A stretch of DNA of 64,000 nucleotides from Deltaproteobacteria bacterium (GCA_031278395.1 JAITKM010000007.1:222818-286817); one strand, 5' to 3'. Positions 6,479 to 40,834 are shown, numbered from the stretch's first letter. Notes: generated from the letters alone by a model not told the origin. Translations and numbers: made by a program.

Positions 6479-6736
6479 GGTTTATGTTTATCGGCTGTTT
6501 AAAGAAATAATGTAAAAAATTACGTAACATATTATAATTTATATTTTTCTGAGTGTAGAAAAACAGCTAATTTATTGAAACTAAAAAAGCACGATTGGCT
6601 GTGTTATTTTTCTAGCTTGATTAATTATCCTATTTATTGATATGCGTTTTGCCTACTAGGTAAATTTGCCTCAGCGTTATAATGATTTTTTAGAAGTTCC
6701 TTGAAGTATTAGAGATACCCTTAGGATATAATTTAT

Positions 6737-8914: not shown

Positions 8915-8955
8915 AAGAGCCTAAAGGTTTCCTAACTTATTAAAGATACCTTAAT

Positions 8956-22655: not shown

Positions 22656-22682
22656 AGGTTCCCTGAATTATTGGAGATATCC

Positions 22683-27505: not shown

Positions 27506-28198
27506 TTATTCCCAGTCTTTGTCATTAGGGAGGTGAAAGGTTGCAACGTTACCTTTGGTAACTTGCTGAATCTCAGTCATGCTTTTTAATTCTTTAAGAA
27601 CAGTCTTAATACGTTTGCCACTTTCTTCTACAACTTTTAGACTTTCTTTTTGTTCTTTTGAAAGTTCTAGTGAAGATTTAAGTAAAAAAATTCCACCAAA
27701 AACAGCGCCTAAAGGATTGTTAATTTCATGTTCAAGCGTCGCAATCAGAGTTTTAATTACTTCGAGTTTTGATTCTTCTAACTTAGTGGCTAATAATTTA
27801 TTTTCGAATTCCTTCCTTTCTAATAAGGCAAAAATTAAAGGAATAAATAACGGTTCTGAAATTTGTCTTTTATGCACAAAGTGCATGGCTCCAGCTCGAA
27901 CGCTTTTAGACGGAATTAGCGGCGAATCATCTGAACTCATGGCAATCTTAGCCGAATACTCAAATTTAGGATGATTAAATAATTGTTCTCCAGTTCCATC
28001 TGGTAGAAAATGGTCAAGAATAGCAATATTAATAAACTCTGTCGTGGTTTCAAGAAAATTAGTAGCTGCGGCTATTGTTTCAGCTACATGGAAAAAAAGA
28101 TTGTTGTTCCAGCTTTTTAGTCTTAATTGTAACAATCTCAAAAATGACTGATCGTCTTCCAAAATAAATATATGTAATGGACGTTCTTCTAGTTTCAT
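27506..28198 (-). CDS. Receiver domain fused to HisKA-like dimerisation/phosphoacceptor domain, with no HATPase domain
   Basis: REC acidic pocket (FILEDD, DHFLPDG). H-box LEHEINNPLGAV. The protein ends ~60 aa later with no ATP-binding G-boxes. Confidence 0.6.
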   Translation of the reverse strand: MKLEERPLHIFILEDDQSFLRLLQLRLKSWNNNLFFHVAETIAAATNFLETTTEFINIAILDHFLPDGTGEQLFNHPKFEYSAKIAMSSDDSPLIPSKSVRAGAMHFVHKRQISEPLFIPLIFALLERKEFENKLLATKLEESKLEVIKTLIATLEHEINNPLGAVFGGIFLLKSSLELSKEQKESLKVVEESGKRIKTVLKELKSMTEIQQVTKGNVATFHLPNDKDWE

Positions 28199-28334
28199 TG
28201 AATGATTAGAGATACCCTATTGTTAAAAATGAGGCTTTATTGTAGTAGCACCTAGTTTTAACTAGTCCCCTTAACTTTAGATTGGATTTTTAACAACCCC
28301 TTATTTTTTTTAAGATAAAAACAAAATTGTAGTT

Positions 28335-28517
28335 ATGAAACATATATTATTTCTATTTTTATTAGTCTTGTCTCTTGGTTTTTTAGAAAGTTGTGGAGTG
28401 AAAAAATTGGATCCAGGTAGATGTGAAGTTAATGATGATTGTAAACAGTCATTGCGCTGTGTGGATACATATTGCAAGGATATTTATTATCCTCCGGAGT
28501 CCTTAATGGTGCCATAA
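28335..28517 (+). CDS. Small secreted Cys-rich protein (hypothetical, 60 aa)
   Basis: Signal peptide plus five Cys after the signal. Its stop overlaps the prfA start region. Short, so low confidence. Confidence 0.3.
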   Translation: MKHILFLFLLVLSLGFLESCGVKKLDPGRCEVNDDCKQSLRCVDTYCKDIYYPPESLMVP

Positions 28518-28520
28518 CAG

Positions 28521-30879: not shown

Positions 30880-31995
30880 GTGAGGATTTTTATGGATGTG
30901 AATTTTAAAGAAAAAGGAAATTATACTCTTGGTGCGATTTTTTCTATTACTGTCGGTATTGCTTTTCTGCTTGGTGTAGTTAATTTAACCAGATATGCAT
31001 ATGCCGTGAATGCTGTCGAACAAGCATCCAGAAGTGTGGCACGCTGTTTAACTCCAACTGATTCGGAATGTTTAGATTTAGATTCTATCAGCACCCAGAA
31101 AAATATTGAGGTAACTAATTCAATTCCAGAATGGTTCGGAATAAAAAAATGTCCACCCATTATTTTTTCTCCTGATCCAATTGAATGTAATCAACAACAA
31201 ACTTATTTTCAACTAGATGATGGACAAGTTATTACTAAGCCTGAAGACTGTAAAATAGATCCTACAATTTGCAATTGTCTTTGTAGCTGTTGCGGAAAAT
31301 ATAACTATTTCTTTCGCCTAAACAACAGCAGTGAGACAACCCAATTCTCCAGCGATTCAGCAGCCGAGCCAATTCCTTCGTTGTGGTCTACCAATTGCCC
31401 CGCAGAGCTTGGTGAGATTGTGGCGTTGTCAACTGATTTTGCCTTTAGTTATAACAATAACCCCAAAATTTTTATGCCGCAGAGTTTAGCTGCTGGTAAT
31501 TATTTAGATTATTTCAATACTATTAATCTTCCAGAAAATTCCAGCGTTACTAAAATAGAAACAACAGTTACTATCAATGGCGACAACAAAAATTGCAAGG
31601 AGCAAACATCAGAGGTTGTAACTTCTGTCGTTGAGCGCGTTACTTTAGGCAGATCTAAAGAACGCCCAGAAGCCTGCGCTGCTTTTGATGATTGCCAAAA
31701 CGAGAATGAAACAATGCAAGCTTTAGCGTTTAAGGATTTATCAAGTAATGAACAAGCTACCCAAATCGCCAAACAAAAAGGCTATGCTGAAATAGCCAGA
31801 GCTTTTGCTAATTATCTACCTAATTGTAATAATCAAGCCAATTGTTCACAAATTTCTATTACTCAAAATGGTTCTAACGCTTTAATTGATGTTAGTTATA
31901 ATTTACAGCTAACTTTTCCATTTGATTTGTTGCTCAAAGATTTTTTACCGGTGCGAACTAGAAAAGAAGAAGCTATGGAATTGTTTATTGAGTAG
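30880..31995 (+). CDS. Cys-rich secreted protein with TadE/TadG-like N-terminal pseudopilin segment (hypothetical)
   Basis: N-terminal pattern GNYTLGAIFSITVGIAFLLGVVNLTRYAYAVNAVEQASRSVARC resembles the TadE-like domain. About 20 Cys in the remainder. Confidence 0.4.
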   Translation: MRIFMDVNFKEKGNYTLGAIFSITVGIAFLLGVVNLTRYAYAVNAVEQASRSVARCLTPTDSECLDLDSISTQKNIEVTNSIPEWFGIKKCPPIIFSPDPIECNQQQTYFQLDDGQVITKPEDCKIDPTICNCLCSCCGKYNYFFRLNNSSETTQFSSDSAAEPIPSLWSTNCPAELGEIVALSTDFAFSYNNNPKIFMPQSLAAGNYLDYFNTINLPENSSVTKIETTVTINGDNKNCKEQTSEVVTSVVERVTLGRSKERPEACAAFDDCQNENETMQALAFKDLSSNEQATQIAKQKGYAEIARAFANYLPNCNNQANCSQISITQNGSNALIDVSYNLQLTFPFDLLLKDFLPVRTRKEEAMELFIE

Positions 31996-35369: not shown

Positions 35370-35444
35370 GCGAGAGTAATTCAGTGGCAGAATGCAAGCT
35401 TCCCAAGCTTGACGTCGCGGGTTCAATCCCCGTCTCTCGCTCCA
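35370..35444 (+). tRNA. tRNA-Gly (anticodon CCC)
   Basis: Hand-folded cloverleaf. Acceptor stem GCGAGAG/CTCTCGC. D-stem ATTC/GAAT. Anticodon stem CAAGC/GCTTG with loop TTCCCAA. T-arm GCGGG-TTCAATC-CCCGT. Encoded CCA. Confidence 0.8.
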
Positions 35445-35446
35445 AT

Positions 35447-36856
35447 TCACGACAAGCCATATTCCTTAATTTTATACAATAAGGCACGATGGCTGATTTC
35501 TAAAAGTTTTGCCGCTTGGGTCCGATTGCCTTTTGTTTGTTCTAAGGCTTTGAGAATCAACGCTTTTTCTATATCTGTAGTATGTTGCTTAATTGATAGA
35601 TTCTTGGAGTTTTCAACTATGATTTGCTGAGTTAGAGGTATATATTGAGAATTTTGTTGAGTTAAAATTTTATTCGATAAATCTTTAACCGTAATAATAT
35701 TACCTGTTTTTAAAATCATCGCCTGCTCAAGACAGTTTTCCAACTCTCTAATATTACCTTGCCAATTGTAATTAATGAGGGCTTGTCGCGCCGTAGCTTC
35801 AAGAGTAGGTCGGGCAATCTTAAACTTGATAGCCTGTTTTTCCAAAAAATAATCGAGCAAAAGATTAATATCCCCCCGGCGTTCGCGTAGCGCTGGAACT
35901 TTAATGTTAATCACATTCAGACGATACAATAAGTCTTCTCGAAAATTTCCCTTTTGAACTTCCTCTTCTAAATCTTTTAAAGTAGCAGTAATAATTCGCA
36001 CGTCAATCGGAATTTGCTCTGAACTGCCAATTGGAGTAATAACTCGTTCTTGTAAGACTCTCAGCAGTTTTACCTGCAAGAGAAAAGGCAAATCGCCAAT
36101 TTCGTCAAGAAAGATTGTGCCATTATTGGCTTCTTCAAATAAACCTTTTTTGTCTGACTTAGCATCAGTAAAAGAACCTTTTTTATACCCAAATAATTCA
36201 CTTTCTAACAGCGTTTCAGGAATAGCGCCGCAATTGATCGCAATAAATTTATGGTCTTTACGAGACGAATTTTGATGAATAGCTTTGGCAATTAATTCTT
36301 TACCAGTTCCAGACTCACCAGTAATTAAAACTGTCGTATTAAAATTAGAAATTTTAGTAATCACCTCAAAAATTTCTAATATTTTCGGGTCTTGAGAAAT
36401 AATTTCCGAAAAATTAGATTTTGGCTGTTGCTGAACCTGTGGATTAGTATCTTTAAAATTTAAATGGCGCCTATTTTTCTTTAAAATAAAAAGTAATTCT
36501 TCTGGGCTAAAGGGTTTAGTTATAAAATCAACTGCCCCTAGACGAATAGCTTCTAAAGCTAAATCTGAAATGCCACTTGCGGACATCGCAATAATTGCCC
36601 CTTTAAATTCTGATTTTTGAAGATATCTTAAAAAGGTTAGCCCATCGATTTGAGGCATCTTTAAGTCAATTAAGAGAAGGTCAAAGTCGTTCTTGTCTTT
36701 GAGAGTTTGTAAAGCAGTGCAAGAATCTGAAGAAGTTGTTATCTCAAATTGAAACGCACTATCAGCTTTAGTGTTTTCGTGATTTAAAATGGCTCTTAGC
36801 GATTGAGTAATTGTTTCTTCATCATCTAAGATAAAAATTTTTTGTATTATTTTCAT
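35447..36856 (-). CDS. Sigma-54-dependent response regulator (NtrC/FlrC/FlgR family enhancer-binding protein)
   Basis: REC domain. AAA+ sigma-54 interaction domain (GESGTGKELIAKAIH, GAFTGA-like GSFTDA, ESELFGY). C-terminal Fis-type HTH. The ORF-track start at 36883 is a TTG within the leader motif, so the ATG at 36856 is preferred. Confidence 0.9.
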   Translation of the reverse strand: MKIIQKIFILDDEETITQSLRAILNHENTKADSAFQFEITTSSDSCTALQTLKDKNDFDLLLIDLKMPQIDGLTFLRYLQKSEFKGAIIAMSASGISDLALEAIRLGAVDFITKPFSPEELLFILKKNRRHLNFKDTNPQVQQQPKSNFSEIISQDPKILEIFEVITKISNFNTTVLITGESGTGKELIAKAIHQNSSRKDHKFIAINCGAIPETLLESELFGYKKGSFTDAKSDKKGLFEEANNGTIFLDEIGDLPFLLQVKLLRVLQERVITPIGSSEQIPIDVRIITATLKDLEEEVQKGNFREDLLYRLNVINIKVPALRERRGDINLLLDYFLEKQAIKFKIARPTLEATARQALINYNWQGNIRELENCLEQAMILKTGNIITVKDLSNKILTQQNSQYIPLTQQIIVENSKNLSIKQHTTDIEKALILKALEQTKGNRTQAAKLLEISHRALLYKIKEYGLS

Positions 36857-36894
36857 AATGCTTAGGGGTCTCCAATAATTCAAGGAACCTTCAG

Positions 36895-37560
36895 TTACAC
36901 AATCAACTCAATTAATCTAAACATATAAACTATTGCAGCTAAGGCTAACCAAGGTCCAAATGAAATTTCAGTTTTACGGTTTTGCTTAGTAGCAAACATA
37001 AAAATTATTCCAAAAATCGAACCGAAAATCGAGCTTAAAAAGAAAATAGCAAGTGTTGCTTGCCAGCCAAACCAAGTCCCGAAAAGTCCTAACAGTTTGA
37101 TGTCTCCCATACCAAAACCTATTTTTTTGGTTATTAAAAAGTAGAGATAAACAAAAATAAACGGTATTCCCAAGCCAATCGCTAAGCCTAGCAGTGAATC
37201 ATAAATACTTTGGGTTAGAGGTGGATCTAATTTGTAGCAGTAAGATGAAATAAGACCTAAAATAAGACCAATAATTATACCGGGAAAATTAATTTTATCG
37301 GGAATGATTTTAAACTCTAGGTCAATAAAGGTAATCGCAATTAAGGTAGCGCTCATGACAAAAATTAAAATAGCGGTAATTATTGACTCAAAAGTGTAAT
37401 AACTAAGGGCAGCAGTGGAAATGCTCAGCACTTCAATAAGCCAAGGCTGAAGCTTAGACAGATTTTTTTCTCTGGGCAGATGCCGAATATAAAGATTAAT
37501 TAAATGTCCAATAATTAAACCGAGGATTATGATTAAAAACGCAATTAAATAAATATCCAT
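36895..37560 (-). CDS. A24-family prepilin (leader) peptidase, TadV/CpaA-like
   Basis: Multi-TM protein with the two catalytic-Asp regions (IPDKINFPG; GMGDIKLLGLFGTWFGW). Confidence 0.75.
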   Translation of the reverse strand: MDIYLIAFLIIILGLIIGHLINLYIRHLPREKNLSKLQPWLIEVLSISTAALSYYTFESIITAILIFVMSATLIAITFIDLEFKIIPDKINFPGIIIGLILGLISSYCYKLDPPLTQSIYDSLLGLAIGLGIPFIFVYLYFLITKKIGFGMGDIKLLGLFGTWFGWQATLAIFFLSSIFGSIFGIIFMFATKQNRKTEISFGPWLALAAIVYMFRLIELIV

Positions 37561-37606
37561 TTGATAAAAGTTAAATTCTTGTGTAAGTCAGTGTTACTAC
37601 GAATCT

Positions 37607-37629
37607 AGGTCTGCAAATTTTGCAGACCT
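37607..37629. promoter_or_regulatory. Perfect 23-bp palindrome AGGTCTGCAAATTTTGCAGACCT in the divergent promoter region
   Basis: Read directly from the sequence. Lies between the prepilin peptidase start (37560, -) and the unknown operon start (37675, +). Candidate operator for a dimeric regulator. Confidence 0.4.
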
Positions 37630-37674
37630 CCCTATATAGATATTTGTTGTTTAAAGCTAGAGATAAATTTAGTT

Positions 37675-38148
37675 ATGGTCAAAATAAAGAAATTACAATC
37701 CACCAAGATTACCAGTATTCCAGGTGGGAAAGACCCCCTTTTATTAATTGAAGAATTTTTAACTCAACGGGGTTATCAACCTAAGTCTTGTTTGCAATTT
37801 AAAAGCAACGAAGTTGTAACTTGGTCAGTTCCAATTAATGAAGAAGATGAGCTTGAGATTACTTTGGAAAAATTAAACCAGCACACTCAAACAACAATTT
37901 ATTTTGGGATTAATATTTTTGCAGTTCCATTGAAATATACTGAAGCTTTTTTAGCTTCAGCTTTAATTGTGGCTGATAGTTTGATTGGGACAAAAATTAG
38001 TTTGATTGATTACGATCTTGTGCTGAGCGTTACACATTATGTTTATAACATGACTATCGAAGATTTAAATTATTTCTTTGAGTTACTCCTGAGCCAACAA
38101 GAACCTATAAAAAGCGCAATCCTTGAAGGCATGAAGTTAGATTTTTAG
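37675..38148 (+). CDS. Hypothetical cytoplasmic protein (possibly YbjN/secretion-chaperone-like fold)
   Basis: ~157 aa, no TM segments, two-lobed hydrophobic pattern. First gene of a tightly spaced 4-gene operon. Confidence 0.35.
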   Translation: MVKIKKLQSTKITSIPGGKDPLLLIEEFLTQRGYQPKSCLQFKSNEVVTWSVPINEEDELEITLEKLNQHTQTTIYFGINIFAVPLKYTEAFLASALIVADSLIGTKISLIDYDLVLSVTHYVYNMTIEDLNYFFELLLSQQEPIKSAILEGMKLDF

Positions 38149-38176
38149 GTCACCTGAAATACTAGAGATACCCCAT

Positions 38177-39175
38177 ATGTCGCAACTTAAAAATAAAATT
38201 ATAGTTTTTTTTACTTTCATTGGAGGTTTATATTTTTTTCTTGAATATATTCTACCTGAAAAATGGCAACTCATTGGTTATGAAATAGAGTTTGGCAAAT
38301 ATCATGATCAAATCACTCAAGGCGTCATTATTTTAAGCTTAATGACTATTGGTTTAGGAATTATTAATATCTTTATGACGCACGGGGCAATAATTCTAAA
38401 AAGTAGACCACATTGGATAAATTCTTTGGTTTTATTACTGAGTTTTCTGATAACTGCATTTTATTTAACCTCTGATTTTATCGCTCAAGAAAAAAAAAAT
38501 TATACTATAGCTAGGTTTGAAAATTTAGAACTTTTTGTGAAAACTGTAGTTGAAGATTACGAAACTAAACAAAGCGCGCCTTTGCCTAGACTACAAGCTT
38601 TAATTATCAGCCTCGAAAAAGAGCGATCTCCAGAATTAAATGCTGCTATTAATTCTAGCATTTCAGAGACTAAAATTTTAATGCGAGAACTAGAAGTTAA
38701 CAACGCAGTTAAGAATAATCTACATTCACAAAAAGAAATTTTAATTGTGGCGCTTCAAGGGTTAACTAAACAAGTGGCTCGGCTTGCTCAAATAAATTAC
38801 GAAAAAGACAAGGCACAACTTGTTTCAAGCTTTATTAAAAATAGTCTTTTTATTCCGCTGGGTTCGGCAATGTTTTCGTTGTTAGCTTTTTATGTAGTAA
38901 CTGCCGCTTACCGTTCATTTAGAATTAAATCCTGGGAGGCGTTGGCAATTATGATACCAGCCCTGTTAATTATGTTGGGACAAATTCCACATGGACCAGC
39001 CTATATATATAGCGGACTTCCAGATATTAGAACTTGGTTGTTAAAAAACTTAAGTTCGCCAGCTTTTCGAGCAATATTTTTTGGTTCGGCTATTGCAGGT
39101 CTAGCTATGGCAGTGCGTATGTGGCTTTCCTTAGAAAAAAGTCCTGTGCAGGATGATGAGCAAGATAGGGGATAG
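38177..39175 (+). CDS. Integral membrane protein (hypothetical), operon gene 2
   Basis: ~3 N-terminal and ~3 C-terminal TM helices flanking a ~150-aa soluble coiled-coil region. Preceded by the conserved leader motif, which overlaps the upstream stop. Confidence 0.5.
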   Translation: MSQLKNKIIVFFTFIGGLYFFLEYILPEKWQLIGYEIEFGKYHDQITQGVIILSLMTIGLGIINIFMTHGAIILKSRPHWINSLVLLLSFLITAFYLTSDFIAQEKKNYTIARFENLELFVKTVVEDYETKQSAPLPRLQALIISLEKERSPELNAAINSSISETKILMRELEVNNAVKNNLHSQKEILIVALQGLTKQVARLAQINYEKDKAQLVSSFIKNSLFIPLGSAMFSLLAFYVVTAAYRSFRIKSWEALAIMIPALLIMLGQIPHGPAYIYSGLPDIRTWLLKNLSSPAFRAIFFGSAIAGLAMAVRMWLSLEKSPVQDDEQDRG

Positions 39176-39184
39176 TGTTAATTT

Positions 39185-40078
39185 ATGAATTACGGATTAA
39201 AATTAGATTCTCGATTGATTTTTTTGCTAGTGTTTATTGTTGTCGCTATCCCGCTAGTTTATGATTCTTCCATTAAACCTGCTAAAATGGAGACCGCTAA
39301 TGTTACCTATCAAGAGCTTGAAAAGCTTGCCGAAAACCAAAAAAATGGCAAGCCAGCTTTGGTGCTAATTGCCGCTGATTTAGCTCCTTCAACGCAATCC
39401 GAAAATGAGCCGCAAACTTCAGTGCTAATTGAGCATTTGTTGCGCAGAAGAATTCCTTTTGGCTTAATTTCTCTGATTCCGTTTGCAACTCCTTATCTAG
39501 AACAAATGCCCCAGGAGATTGTAACTAAGTTAGCTCAAGAGACAGGAGAAACTTGGGAATACGGTAAAGATTGGGTTAATTTTGGTTATCGACCAGGGTC
39601 GACTATTATGATTCAAAAATTTGCTAAGTCCAAAGACCTACACGAATTTTTTAAAACTGATGCTCAGGCAATTCCGATGAAGAAGTTAGAAATTATGAAA
39701 GGGATTAAAACAATTCAGGACATTCCAGCTTTGATAGAACTAACTGGCACGGTTGGGGTTTTTAATGTTTGGTTACAGTTTTTTAGGTCGGATCAGCATG
39801 TACCAACTTTAATTCATGGTTGCACCGCAATTACAATTCCAGAAGCTTATAATTATTTTATTACCAATCAAATCTCTGGTTTGCTAGAAGGGGTAGCTGG
39901 CGCGGCATGGTATGAGGAATTATTAAGTGAAGTGTATCCAGCCCGCAAGCCTGGTCATGCGTTAAAAATTATGACTGCTTTGTCAATTGGCAATATTTTA
40001 ATTATTGTTTTAATCGGCATTGGGAATTTGCAAGAGTTGTGGAATTACTGGAAGAATAAGAGAACTAGAAATTTTTAG
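39185..40078 (+). CDS. Membrane-anchored protein (hypothetical), operon gene 3
   Basis: N-terminal TM, a large domain, and a C-terminal TM. Starts 10 nt after gene 2. Confidence 0.5.
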   Translation: MNYGLKLDSRLIFLLVFIVVAIPLVYDSSIKPAKMETANVTYQELEKLAENQKNGKPALVLIAADLAPSTQSENEPQTSVLIEHLLRRRIPFGLISLIPFATPYLEQMPQEIVTKLAQETGETWEYGKDWVNFGYRPGSTIMIQKFAKSKDLHEFFKTDAQAIPMKKLEIMKGIKTIQDIPALIELTGTVGVFNVWLQFFRSDQHVPTLIHGCTAITIPEAYNYFITNQISGLLEGVAGAAWYEELLSEVYPARKPGHALKIMTALSIGNILIIVLIGIGNLQELWNYWKNKRTRNF

Positions 40079-40111
40079 AGGTCCCCTGAGATATTAGAAA
40101 TACCCTTAATT

Positions 40112-40834
40112 ATGAATTACACATTATTTACACTATCTTGGTTTGAAACTATTTTAGCTGGGATATCTGTGTTAGCAATTTATTCTTTTCTCTATCGGGA
40201 AAACAAATTTTACCGTTTGTTTGAGCATCTTTTTATTGGTATTTCTACGGCAATTGTAACTATTGAACCAATTAAAACTTTTTTTTGGCAAACAACTTTA
40301 AAACCGCTACTGGGTTTAGATCGTCTTGCATTTCCGGATGGTACATATGTTGCGGATTACGATTTTAATTATTTGTTATTTTTAATTCCTATCTTTTTTG
40401 GTTCGCTTTATTACAGCATATTAGTTCCTAAATATAGTTGGCTGGCGCAAATCACAATTGGTTTTTTATTAGGGATTAGTGGAGGTATGGCTTTTAATGC
40501 AACCATGGTAGAAGTTACTCCACAAATTATTGATTCCTTTCGTCCACTTTATATAAATCTGCCGGAGCAATCGGCGAGAGAAAACTTAATCAATAGTCTT
40601 AATAATATTTTCTTTCTTATAGTTTTATTTTCGACTTCTTGTTATTTCTTTTTTACTTTTAAGCGCAAGCCAAACGGAGTGGTGGAGAAAATTTCAACTT
40701 CCGGACGTTGGCTCATGATGGGTTGTTTTGGGGCGTTTTTTGGCACTACTATAATGGCGCGCCTAGCATTGTTAATTGAGAGATTGCAATTTATGGTTGA
40801 CCATTGGTGGGTTGCTGTCATGGCATTGTTTTAA
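40112..40834 (+). CDS. Polytopic membrane protein (hypothetical), operon gene 4
   Basis: ~6 predicted TM helices. Preceded by the conserved leader motif, which overlaps the upstream stop. Confidence 0.5.
   Translation: MNYTLFTLSWFETILAGISVLAIYSFLYRENKFYRLFEHLFIGISTAIVTIEPIKTFFWQTTLKPLLGLDRLAFPDGTYVADYDFNYLLFLIPIFFGSLYYSILVPKYSWLAQITIGFLLGISGGMAFNATMVEVTPQIIDSFRPLYINLPEQSARENLINSLNNIFFLIVLFSTSCYFFFTFKRKPNGVVEKISTSGRWLMMGCFGAFFGTTIMARLALLIERLQFMVDHWWVAVMALF

Follow-up and report, generated by a model that had tools for sequence, protein, structure and literature searches.

The closest counterpart of the locus analyzed here is a gene cluster of uncultured Bdellovibrionota, Binatia, Thermodesulfobacteriota and Dadabacteria, itself uncharacterized, in which three adjacent genes for membrane proteins, named g2, g3 and g4 hereafter, stand beside genes for a DUF6754 protein and a GlmL-like ATPase. 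We compared with it a stretch of 64,000 nucleotides from Deltaproteobacteria bacterium (GCA_031278395.1 JAITKM010000007.1:222818-286817; G+C content 36%), called the window, in which all coordinates count from the first base and in which four genes, g1 to g4, follow a perfect 23-bp palindrome and a divergent A24 prepilin peptidase gene. The window shares the order and the strand of g2, g3 and g4 with the DUF6754/GlmL-like cluster and differs from it in that DUF6754, the GlmL-like ATPase and the partner proteins designated C1, C3 and the C4 pair are absent from the 64 kb. The type IV filament platform (PilM, of actin-like ATPase fold, PilN/PilO, PilC) resembles the relatives' clusters in blueprint only, with a cytoplasmic ASKHA-fold protein, bitopic and polytopic inner-membrane proteins and periplasmic coiled coils; PilT/PilU and an outer-membrane barrel are sometimes encoded near the relatives' cassette, and the cassette of the window adjoins the prepilin peptidase gene. 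By contrast, no sequence or fold match was found with this platform, the cluster is devoid of pilin and secretin, and adjacency to an A24 gene was seen in 0 of 80 loci. Our best explanation, for which we see roughly even chances, is that the locus is composite and joins a unit made of the A24 gene, g1 and the palindrome to a cassette that would encode a three-subunit membrane complex.

The four genes were found exactly where the original prediction had placed them, all on the plus strand: g1 (37675-38148, 157 aa), g2 (38177-39175, 332 aa), g3 (39185-40078, 297 aa) and g4 (40112-40834, 240 aa). The gaps between them, announced as 29, 10 and 34 nt, are 28, 9 and 33 nt, a counting difference that leaves the tight packing intact. 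A terminator scan reported no terminator-like site at any of the g1-g4 junctions or past g4, and the four genes are spaced closely enough for co-transcription. Hydropathy and AlphaFold2 (AF2) models agree with the announced division into one soluble and three membrane proteins, g2 and g4 being polytopic and g3 carrying one transmembrane helix at each end. The proteins are indeed uncharacterized: all four are annotated at NCBI as 'hypothetical protein' (LBE20_01930-01945), and Pfam and NCBIfam gave no match for g1-g4 even at E = 0.1. The A24 prepilin peptidase gene (36895-37560, minus strand) encodes 221 aa with a Pfam PF01478 match at E = 4.4e-18 and is devoid of the A24_N_bact domain. The packing fits the proposed four-gene operon, but the four genes are not conserved as a unit in relatives; because of their tight spacing, two unrelated units had looked like one operon.

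The first of these units is the g2-g3-g4 cassette. A scan with a g2 alignment, using one genome per species, recovered it in at least 576 genome loci, and the neighborhood counts given below refer to the best 80 of them, all from metagenome-assembled genomes (MAGs). These 80 loci belong to Bdellovibrionota or Oligoflexia, Binatia, Thermodesulfobacteriota, Dadabacteria, Syntrophobacterales and Planctomycetota, and the closest g2 among the genome loci listed by the scan is 50% identical to that of the window. In 71 of the 80 loci, g2, g3 and g4 directly follow one another in this order on one strand; eight loci were cut by a contig end, and in the remaining exception (L014) g3 was not called. 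Their junctions are mostly overlaps of 4 or 8 nt. We also joined the four proteins of the window as one query in an exhaustive HMMER search (E <= 1e-3), which returned 3,912 library clusters at 50% identity, dominated by relatives of g2-g4. The best 150 of these 3,912 clusters comprised 124 g2, 18 g3 and 5 g4 relatives and 3 fusions of g3 with g4, and g1 was represented by none. A profile search added 574 further proteins and, among the matches listed, all were unnamed and without Pfam domains. Cassette proteins also occur in the cultured Planctomycetes Thalassoglobus polymorphus, Schlesneria paludicola, Planctomicrobium, Calycomorphotria hydatis and Stratiformator vulcanicus.

The linkage of g3 and g4 goes as far as natural fusion. 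Six proteins of 566-598 aa from Planctomycetota (P0114, P0135, P0145, P0151, P0152 and P0153), including those of Calycomorphotria hydatis and Stratiformator vulcanicus, combine g3 with g4, and in each of them the linker that connects the final g3 helix to the first g4 helix contains an additional transmembrane helix. This additional helix implies that g3 ends on one side of the membrane and g4 begins on the other. Judging from gene order and family distribution, g2-g3-g4 is an old, tightly linked cassette, for which no described counterpart was found.

The second unit is built around g1, which lies outside the conserved cassette and belongs to a narrow family that travels with an A24 peptidase gene. 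We detected 27 homologues of g1, all at least 44% identical, all unnamed and without Pfam match. Among the 66 g1-bearing loci examined, g1 stood head-to-head with an A24 prepilin peptidase gene in 18, and this pairing covers nearly all loci with a g1 of at least about 44% identity, given enough readable upstream sequence (divergent loci L082-L090, L093-L095, L098-L100 and L103-L106). A glycosyltransferase gene is interposed between the two in L082, L083 and L106. Past the A24 gene, the relatives often carry a sigma-54 activator, a response regulator being the neighbor in L082, L089 and L093, and PilQ, aroK and aroB come farther out, beyond the activator. The gene 3' of g1 is variable where g1 is about 44-67% identical (UvrD, RibD_C and an M15 peptidase are among those found), and g2 never occupies this position there. 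A g2 gene follows g1 directly only in the two closest relatives, L091 (g1 85% and g2 87% identical to the window) and L092 (both 74%), which suggests that the g1-g2 juxtaposition is recent and clade-specific, and has been retained in that clade. In addition, one MAG (CAZDWZ01) carries g1 and the A24 gene on contig 13 (L087) and the full DUF6754-g2-g3-g4-GlmL-like-C1 cluster on contig 5 (L011).

The protein encoded by g1 is under purifying selection, with a ratio of non-synonymous to synonymous substitution rates (dN/dS) of 0.05-0.08. It has one weak hydrophobic stretch and lacks a segment with the hydrophobicity of a typical membrane span. In size and solubility it fits the chaperones of type III secretion systems and of the YbjN type (TY-Chap1), as had been proposed, though as a lead only; the corresponding family PF22551 was matched faintly, by 2 of the 27 family members (E = 0.15), and the g1 of the window itself gave no match. 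No match was obtained with g1 in a sequence-profile search of the PDB. A relationship of g1 to DUF6754, whose place it occupies, was considered and rejected (hhalign probability 0.2%). Overall, g1-g4 are two units joined recently and not one evolutionary unit. The membrane core would have moved behind g1 in the lineage of the window, where it would probably be co-transcribed with g1 and secondarily placed under the control of the palindrome.

The perfect 23-bp palindrome announced between the divergent A24 gene and g1 was found at 37607-37629 (AGGTCTGCAAATTTTGCAGACCT, core TGCAAA-N-TTTGCA). It is formed by two arms of 11 nt around one base, and the window contains no longer perfect palindrome. 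Its position is central in the A24-g1 intergenic region of 114 nt, the flanks measuring 46 and 45 nt, and a TATATA box (37633-37638, plus strand), which resembles a -10 element and may have a promoter role, lies 3 nt past it. Palindromes with arms of at least 11 nt also arose when the window was Markov-shuffled (9 of 30 shuffles), so that such a length is not very improbable by itself; the significance of the palindrome comes from its conservation in relatives. In L092, 22 of the 23 bases are identical despite synonymous sites near saturation (dS about 0.9-3). In L084-86 and L093, where g1 is 64-67% identical and g2 is missing downstream, CCACTATGCAAAGTTTGCGTAGTGG occupies the equivalent place. 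Four aligned sequences, which represent two independent lineages only, have the core T-N-TGCAAA-N-TTTGC invariant, as well as the TATAT just downstream (columns T73-T77). The outer arms differ yet stay complementary, with 93.6% of cells paired versus 30-45% in slid controls, and 4 of 12 pairs changed on both sides. Because g1 tracks the A24 gene while the cassette does not, and because the dyad is kept where g2-g4 are absent, the palindrome belongs to the A24/g1 pair.

We favor the interpretation of the palindrome as a putative operator overlapping the g1 promoter, since its core is invariant in sequence and not just in pairing, and since it abuts the TATAT box. Bound by a dimeric protein, the putative dyad site upstream of this box would most probably regulate the g1 promoter and perhaps that of the A24 gene as well. 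An alternative that we consider unlikely, though it survives better than any other rival, is that the palindrome acts as an RNA hairpin at the 5' end of the g1 or the A24 transcript, as a stabilizer or an attenuator. The predicted hairpin is stable in a 60-nt context (-16.4 kcal/mol), its outer arms vary on both sides with pairing kept, and the lone irregular pair, a T-G at one position in three of the four sequences, would be a G-U wobble in plus-strand RNA only, which counts against the operator. However, two-sided changes are expected under both explanations, the half-sites of a dimer-bound operator also co-varying, and the sequence of the inner 6+6 bases does not vary, as in a half-site contacted by a protein. 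In addition, RNA could not form the central pairs around a loop of one base, the palindrome adjoins the conserved TATAT box as an operator would, the lack of a T-run on either strand excludes a terminator, and just two independent lineages are available for comparing the arms.

With an operator as the preferred interpretation, the expectation of a dedicated regulator was only half borne out: the cis element is conserved, but no dedicated regulator gene was identified, and the sole DNA-binding protein encoded nearby is a sigma-54 response regulator. Allowing up to 2 mismatches, no further match to TNTGCAAANTTTGCRNA was found within the 64 kb, and the suggestion that additional copies would mark a regulon received no support there. 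Two other roles of the palindrome were rejected. An intrinsic terminator would need a T-run, which is missing from the flanks on either strand (CCCTATATAG on the plus strand, AGATTCGTAG on the minus strand), and the terminator scan did not report the palindrome. A sigma-54 promoter, looked for by eye in 37561-37674, was discarded as the GG-GC distance in the window is one base over the consensus; the sigma-54-type GG is missing in L084 and L093. A separate inverted repeat with 24-nt arms (GGGACGATTTAAGAGTGGTTGAGC ... GCTCAACCACTCTTAAATCGTCCC) was observed in the A24-g1 intergenic region of L084 (L084:1245-1320), as well as in L085, L086 and L094; it lies upstream of the L084 palindrome and is absent from the window.

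The architecture of the cassette proteins was analyzed from family alignments and AF2 models. In g2, two sets of three transmembrane helices enclose a variable helical bundle of about 115 aa, and the second set carries invariant Arg and Glu residues. The middle region of g2 (about residues 100-215) is the least conserved stretch of the family and was modeled as an antiparallel bundle that extends transmembrane helices 3 and 4 without a break, with a predicted local distance difference test (pLDDT) score above 90 for most of residues 60-220 in the joint g2+g4 model. Similar bundles are known from the NarQ sensor domain and OspC. The template-modeling score (TM-score) normalized to OspC reached 0.52-0.54, but with E >= 0.85, and g2 carries no kinase or signaling output domain. 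g4 has about six transmembrane helices, and its invariant residues are E30, N31, R35, E38, H39, R199, R217 and R224.

In g3, an N-terminal transmembrane helix is followed by an alpha/beta domain (about 230 aa; six strands in a mainly parallel sheet) and by a long C-terminal transmembrane helix. The AF2 model, built from 76 sequences, has a pLDDT of 94.9 and a predicted TM-score (pTM) of 0.91. D65, E73, Q77, E83, H84, R87, D159 and G212-C213-T214 are invariant among the 61 closest relatives, while the wider family keeps D65, E73, H84, D129, D159, T214 and Q229, and H211 and C213 fall below 90%. On the model, the invariant residues map to the ends of strands 1 and 5 and to the ensuing helices. 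In Rossmann-like folds, strand ends and the helices that follow them are the place of ligand binding. g3 shares with Rossmann- and flavodoxin-like domains (RCK/TrkA, PpnN, the OtsA GT-B half-domain) a helix-flanked, mainly parallel sheet and conserved polar residues at the C-terminal edge of the strands. It differs from them in that Foldseek gave no PDB match at E <= 1e-3; the best match had E = 6e-3, the best matches were generic Rossmann-like domains with a query-normalized TM-score of 0.33-0.34 and 8-13% identity, and there is no evident nucleotide-binding glycine motif. The carbohydrate-binding protein 4ru1 came up at E = 0.025 with a TM-score of 0.17, and no binding protein rose above the noise. 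The transmembrane helix at both ends and the probable periplasmic location of the domain also set g3 apart from the Rossmann-like domains. Together with the envelope system discussed below, we propose, tentatively, that this modeled domain would represent a new fold family.

The linker helix of the fusions and the positive-inside rule suggest a topology for the three proteins. Both termini of g3 would be cytoplasmic and its domain periplasmic; g4 would start outside and cross the membrane with six helices; and g2 would start inside and expose its helical insert to the periplasm. The conserved loops AAYRSFRIRS of g2 and ENxFYRxFEH of g4 would then be cytoplasmic.

Family searches gave no consistent assignment. 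Pfam scans over all members of the family alignments (34 for g2, 61 for g3 and 46 for g4) returned no consistent family; isolated matches among the 34 g2 relatives were one to LptF_LptG (E = 0.003) and one to FecCD (E = 0.014). The housekeeping families that the original prediction had named as the possible contrary result, such as ABC-2 permeases, were looked for and none matched consistently, and no ABC-2 or ABC-type permease profile of Pfam or NCBIfam matched g2-g4. Sequence profiles of the PDB gave best E-values of 0.21 for g2, 1.9 for g3 and 1.9 for g4, and the g2+g4 model had no Foldseek match in the PDB below E = 0.39, bundles of the TTYH, OspC and NarQ type being those that surfaced. 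No relationship between g3 and DUF6754 or between g2 and g4 was detected by hhalign. PADLOC reported nothing for the cassette proteins and PHROGs a single marginal match of g4 (phrog_36737, unknown function, E = 0.006), which argues against a real defense or phage link.

The genes that surround the cassette in relatives suggest what it may work with. When neighbors were clustered across the 80 loci, a cluster of about 10 genes on one strand emerged (for example L013:3050-12619 and L035:3244-12533), and the g2, g3 and g4 of the window are clear orthologues of its genes (E = 1e-29 to 1e-116). Directly upstream of the core lies DUF6754 (C0, PF20539) in 65 of 80 loci, with a Pfam match at E = 8e-77. 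Also upstream are C3, of about 95 aa and without Pfam match (43/80), C4, two paralogous proteins without Pfam match that read as coiled coils with an N-terminal anchor or signal (35/80), and a hexapeptide transferase recognized by Pfam (22/80). Directly downstream, 51 of 80 loci encode C2, a GlmL-like protein of about 610 aa that matches PF13941 'MutL' at E = 7e-122; in NCBIfam it comes near GlmL yet stays under every curated cut-off. C1, of about 372 aa, is found downstream in 59 of 80 loci and has weak matches, lipoyl-like at the N-terminus and KOW-like at the C-terminus. PDB profile searches gave nothing for DUF6754 and, for C1, only these weak lipoyl-like and KOW-like matches. A bactofilin gene is nearby in 9 of 80 loci. 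Directly upstream and on the same strand, tandem PilT/PilU genes (TIGR01420, 440 bits) were found in 6 of 80 loci, including L054, L061, L067 and L025, and a gene for a Porin_O_P-like barrel likewise in 6 (L037, L044, L065, L070, L071 and L073). A literature search found no paper mentioning DUF6754, and none relevant on PF13941, on GlmL with ASKHA or on the set of phyla concerned.

These neighborhoods lead us to a tentative proposal, which we hold with less confidence than the composite nature of the locus: g2-g4 may be the inner-membrane core of an ATP-coupled, multi-component envelope system, undescribed and widespread. With the same reserve, its parts would be DUF6754, the three core subunits, the GlmL-like ASKHA ATPase, C1, two coiled-coil proteins and sometimes an outer-membrane barrel. 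The proteins g2, g3 and g4 would be three subunits of one inner-membrane complex, to which g2 would supply six transmembrane helices and a periplasmic helical bundle, g4 six helices, and g3 an alpha/beta domain in the periplasm, anchored through its two terminal helices and bearing a conserved cluster of acidic, His, Thr and Cys residues at the C-terminal edge of the sheet. This core would link a conformational change, driven by ATP in the cytoplasm, to events on the periplasmic face, either a reaction or a transfer.

Several observations weigh against this proposal. The evidence from which we infer complex formation consists of synteny and the fusions, and the cassette proteins have no informative fold match. 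The model of g4 is poor (pLDDT about 45-65), owing to the few sequences in its alignment, and the C-terminal part of g2 is of low confidence too. The porin-like and PilT/PilU genes accompany the cluster in just 6 of 80 loci each. Finally, profiles of C0-C7 (DUF6754, GlmL-like, C1, C3 and C4 among them) match no open reading frame (ORF) of the window even at E <= 10. The core of the window either works without its partners, or the partners are encoded elsewhere in the genome.

The same three proteins could instead form a tripartite solute transporter, in which g3 would be a tethered binding domain, g2 and g4 would make a 12-helix permease, and the ATPase would be regulatory or unrelated. About six plus six transmembrane helices with a probable periplasmic alpha/beta domain, conserved charged residues at the membrane boundaries and the location of the conserved polar cluster of g3, where Rossmann-like folds bind ligands, are compatible with this explanation. 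We nevertheless judge it distinctly unlikely, as no transporter family, whether ABC, DctP/Q/M, TctA/B/C or other, appeared consistently across members even faintly; Pfam searches of g2-g4 and their members gave no DctP/Q/M or TctA/B/C domain, the fold of g3 matches no binding protein in the PDB, and the conserved partners (coiled coils, ASKHA ATPase and C1) are unlike transporter accessories.

In the original prediction, the four genes were one dedicated operon for an unrecognized pilus- or Tad-associated envelope machine with its own dimeric regulator, tied to the prepilin peptidase. As a description of g2-g4, an unrecognized envelope machine is apt, whereas the association with pili is unsupported and goes back to a recent local juxtaposition. 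The tight spacing without terminator-like sites, the retention of g1-then-g2 in the two closest relatives and the tandem PilT/PilU genes ahead of the cluster in 6 of 80 loci would suit such an operon, as would an A24-like gene located two genes after the g3 homologue of Thalassoglobus polymorphus. Against it, no A24 gene was found within 7 kb of g2-g4 in any of the 80 loci, unrelated genes follow g1 in relatives whose g1 is 67% identical or less, and the g1/A24 pair and the cassette are on separate contigs of the MAG mentioned above. In addition, no T2SSF, PilM/N/O, TadB/C/Z or T2SSE ATPase domain was detected in g1-g4 at E <= 0.1, the conserved cluster is without a pilin-like gene, and the palindrome persists where g2-g4 are missing. 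The TadE-like gene reported at 30880 fell below threshold (18.1 bits for a cut-off of 22.9). We consider a single pilus-associated operon improbable. As to the locus of Thalassoglobus polymorphus (CP036267.1, L081:8797-13343), a C1-like protein precedes the g3 homologue, which is followed by a beta-lactamase-fold gene and then by a weak Peptidase_A24 gene, the proximity of which is possibly coincidental.

Least probable of all is that the cassette of the window is an orphan remnant, severed from DUF6754 and the ATPase and heading to decay, for although none of the seven partner families was found in the 64 kb even at E = 10, the partners may lie elsewhere in the genome, beyond the window, and the core is intact, with ORFs of full family length, every family-invariant residue of g2, g3 and g4 kept and a g2 dN/dS of 0.11-0.18 versus the two closest relatives (L091 and L092), which share the rearranged order.

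The leader motif that had been noticed at two junctions of the locus is real, with one copy overlapping the stop codon of g1 (38147-38173) and another filling the g3-g4 gap (40079-40105). Its consensus AGGTTCCCTGAATTATTGGAGATACCC spans 27 nt and has 7 copies in the window with up to 6 mismatches, the others being at 6694-6720, 8925-8951, 22656-22682 and 28191-28217 on the plus strand and at 36864-36890 on the minus strand, ahead of the sigma-54 response regulator gene. Shuffled windows contained at most one match even with 9 mismatches allowed. A start codon of the same strand comes 0-19 nt after six of the seven copies (the exception being 28191), and five of seven begin 0-4 nt from the stop codon of the preceding gene. 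In several copies a GGAG/AGAG segment stands 6-13 nt ahead of the start codon, so that the motif may serve as an extended ribosome-binding leader. A structured RNA was considered and rejected, as no consistent fold was found across the copies. The motif has no match in 90 loci of relatives and is missing from the orthologous g1-g2 junction of L091 and L092; in 71 of 71 relatives the g3-g4 gap is at most 7 nt (mostly an overlap of 4 or 8 nt), versus 33 nt in the window. Its absence from the junction in the relatives and the shortness of the gap that it fills here suggest a lineage-specific element that looks inserted.

Other features were recorded around the locus. Downstream of the A24 gene lies the gene of the sigma-54-dependent response regulator (35447-36856, minus strand; Pfam Response_reg, Sigma54_activat and HTH_8). 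The start of its mechanically called ORF, a TTG at 36883, falls within the leader-motif copy at 36864-36890, and the ATG at 36856 (MKIIQKIF...), 7 nt past the motif, is more likely to be the true start. A tRNA-Gly(CCC) gene (35370-35444, plus strand) stands between a glycosyltransferase gene and the response regulator gene; it was the sole match (35370-35441) in an Rfam scan of the window, which reported no RNA family in the g1-g4 region. The glycosyltransferase gene sits between the A24 gene and g1 in L082 and L106, unlike in the window, and this different placement suggests that the block of tRNA, glycosyltransferase and regulator genes has been rearranged more than once. Between the leader-motif copy at 28191-28217 and a release-factor gene, a small ORF (28336-28518, plus strand, MKHILFLFLLVLSLGFLESCG...) has a lipoprotein-type signal and several cysteines; its length is under the 150-aa limit of the ORF list. 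The gene past g4 reads as a putative tRNA-dihydrouridine-synthase-like gene.

Overall, these results describe three co-inherited membrane-protein families, spread over at least 576 species-level genomes of several phyla, for which neither a curated family nor a solved structure nor any literature was found. Both the palindrome and the pilus context go with g1 and not with the membrane cassette, and the 27-nt leader motif is a separate, lineage-specific expression element worth study. As members of the cassette families occur in cultured Planctomycetes, experiments on them are possible now. If the cassette were the core of an ATP-coupled envelope system, it would be a new kind of machine in the diderm cell envelope, and GlmL-type ASKHA proteins would gain a role outside the B12 mutase pathways.

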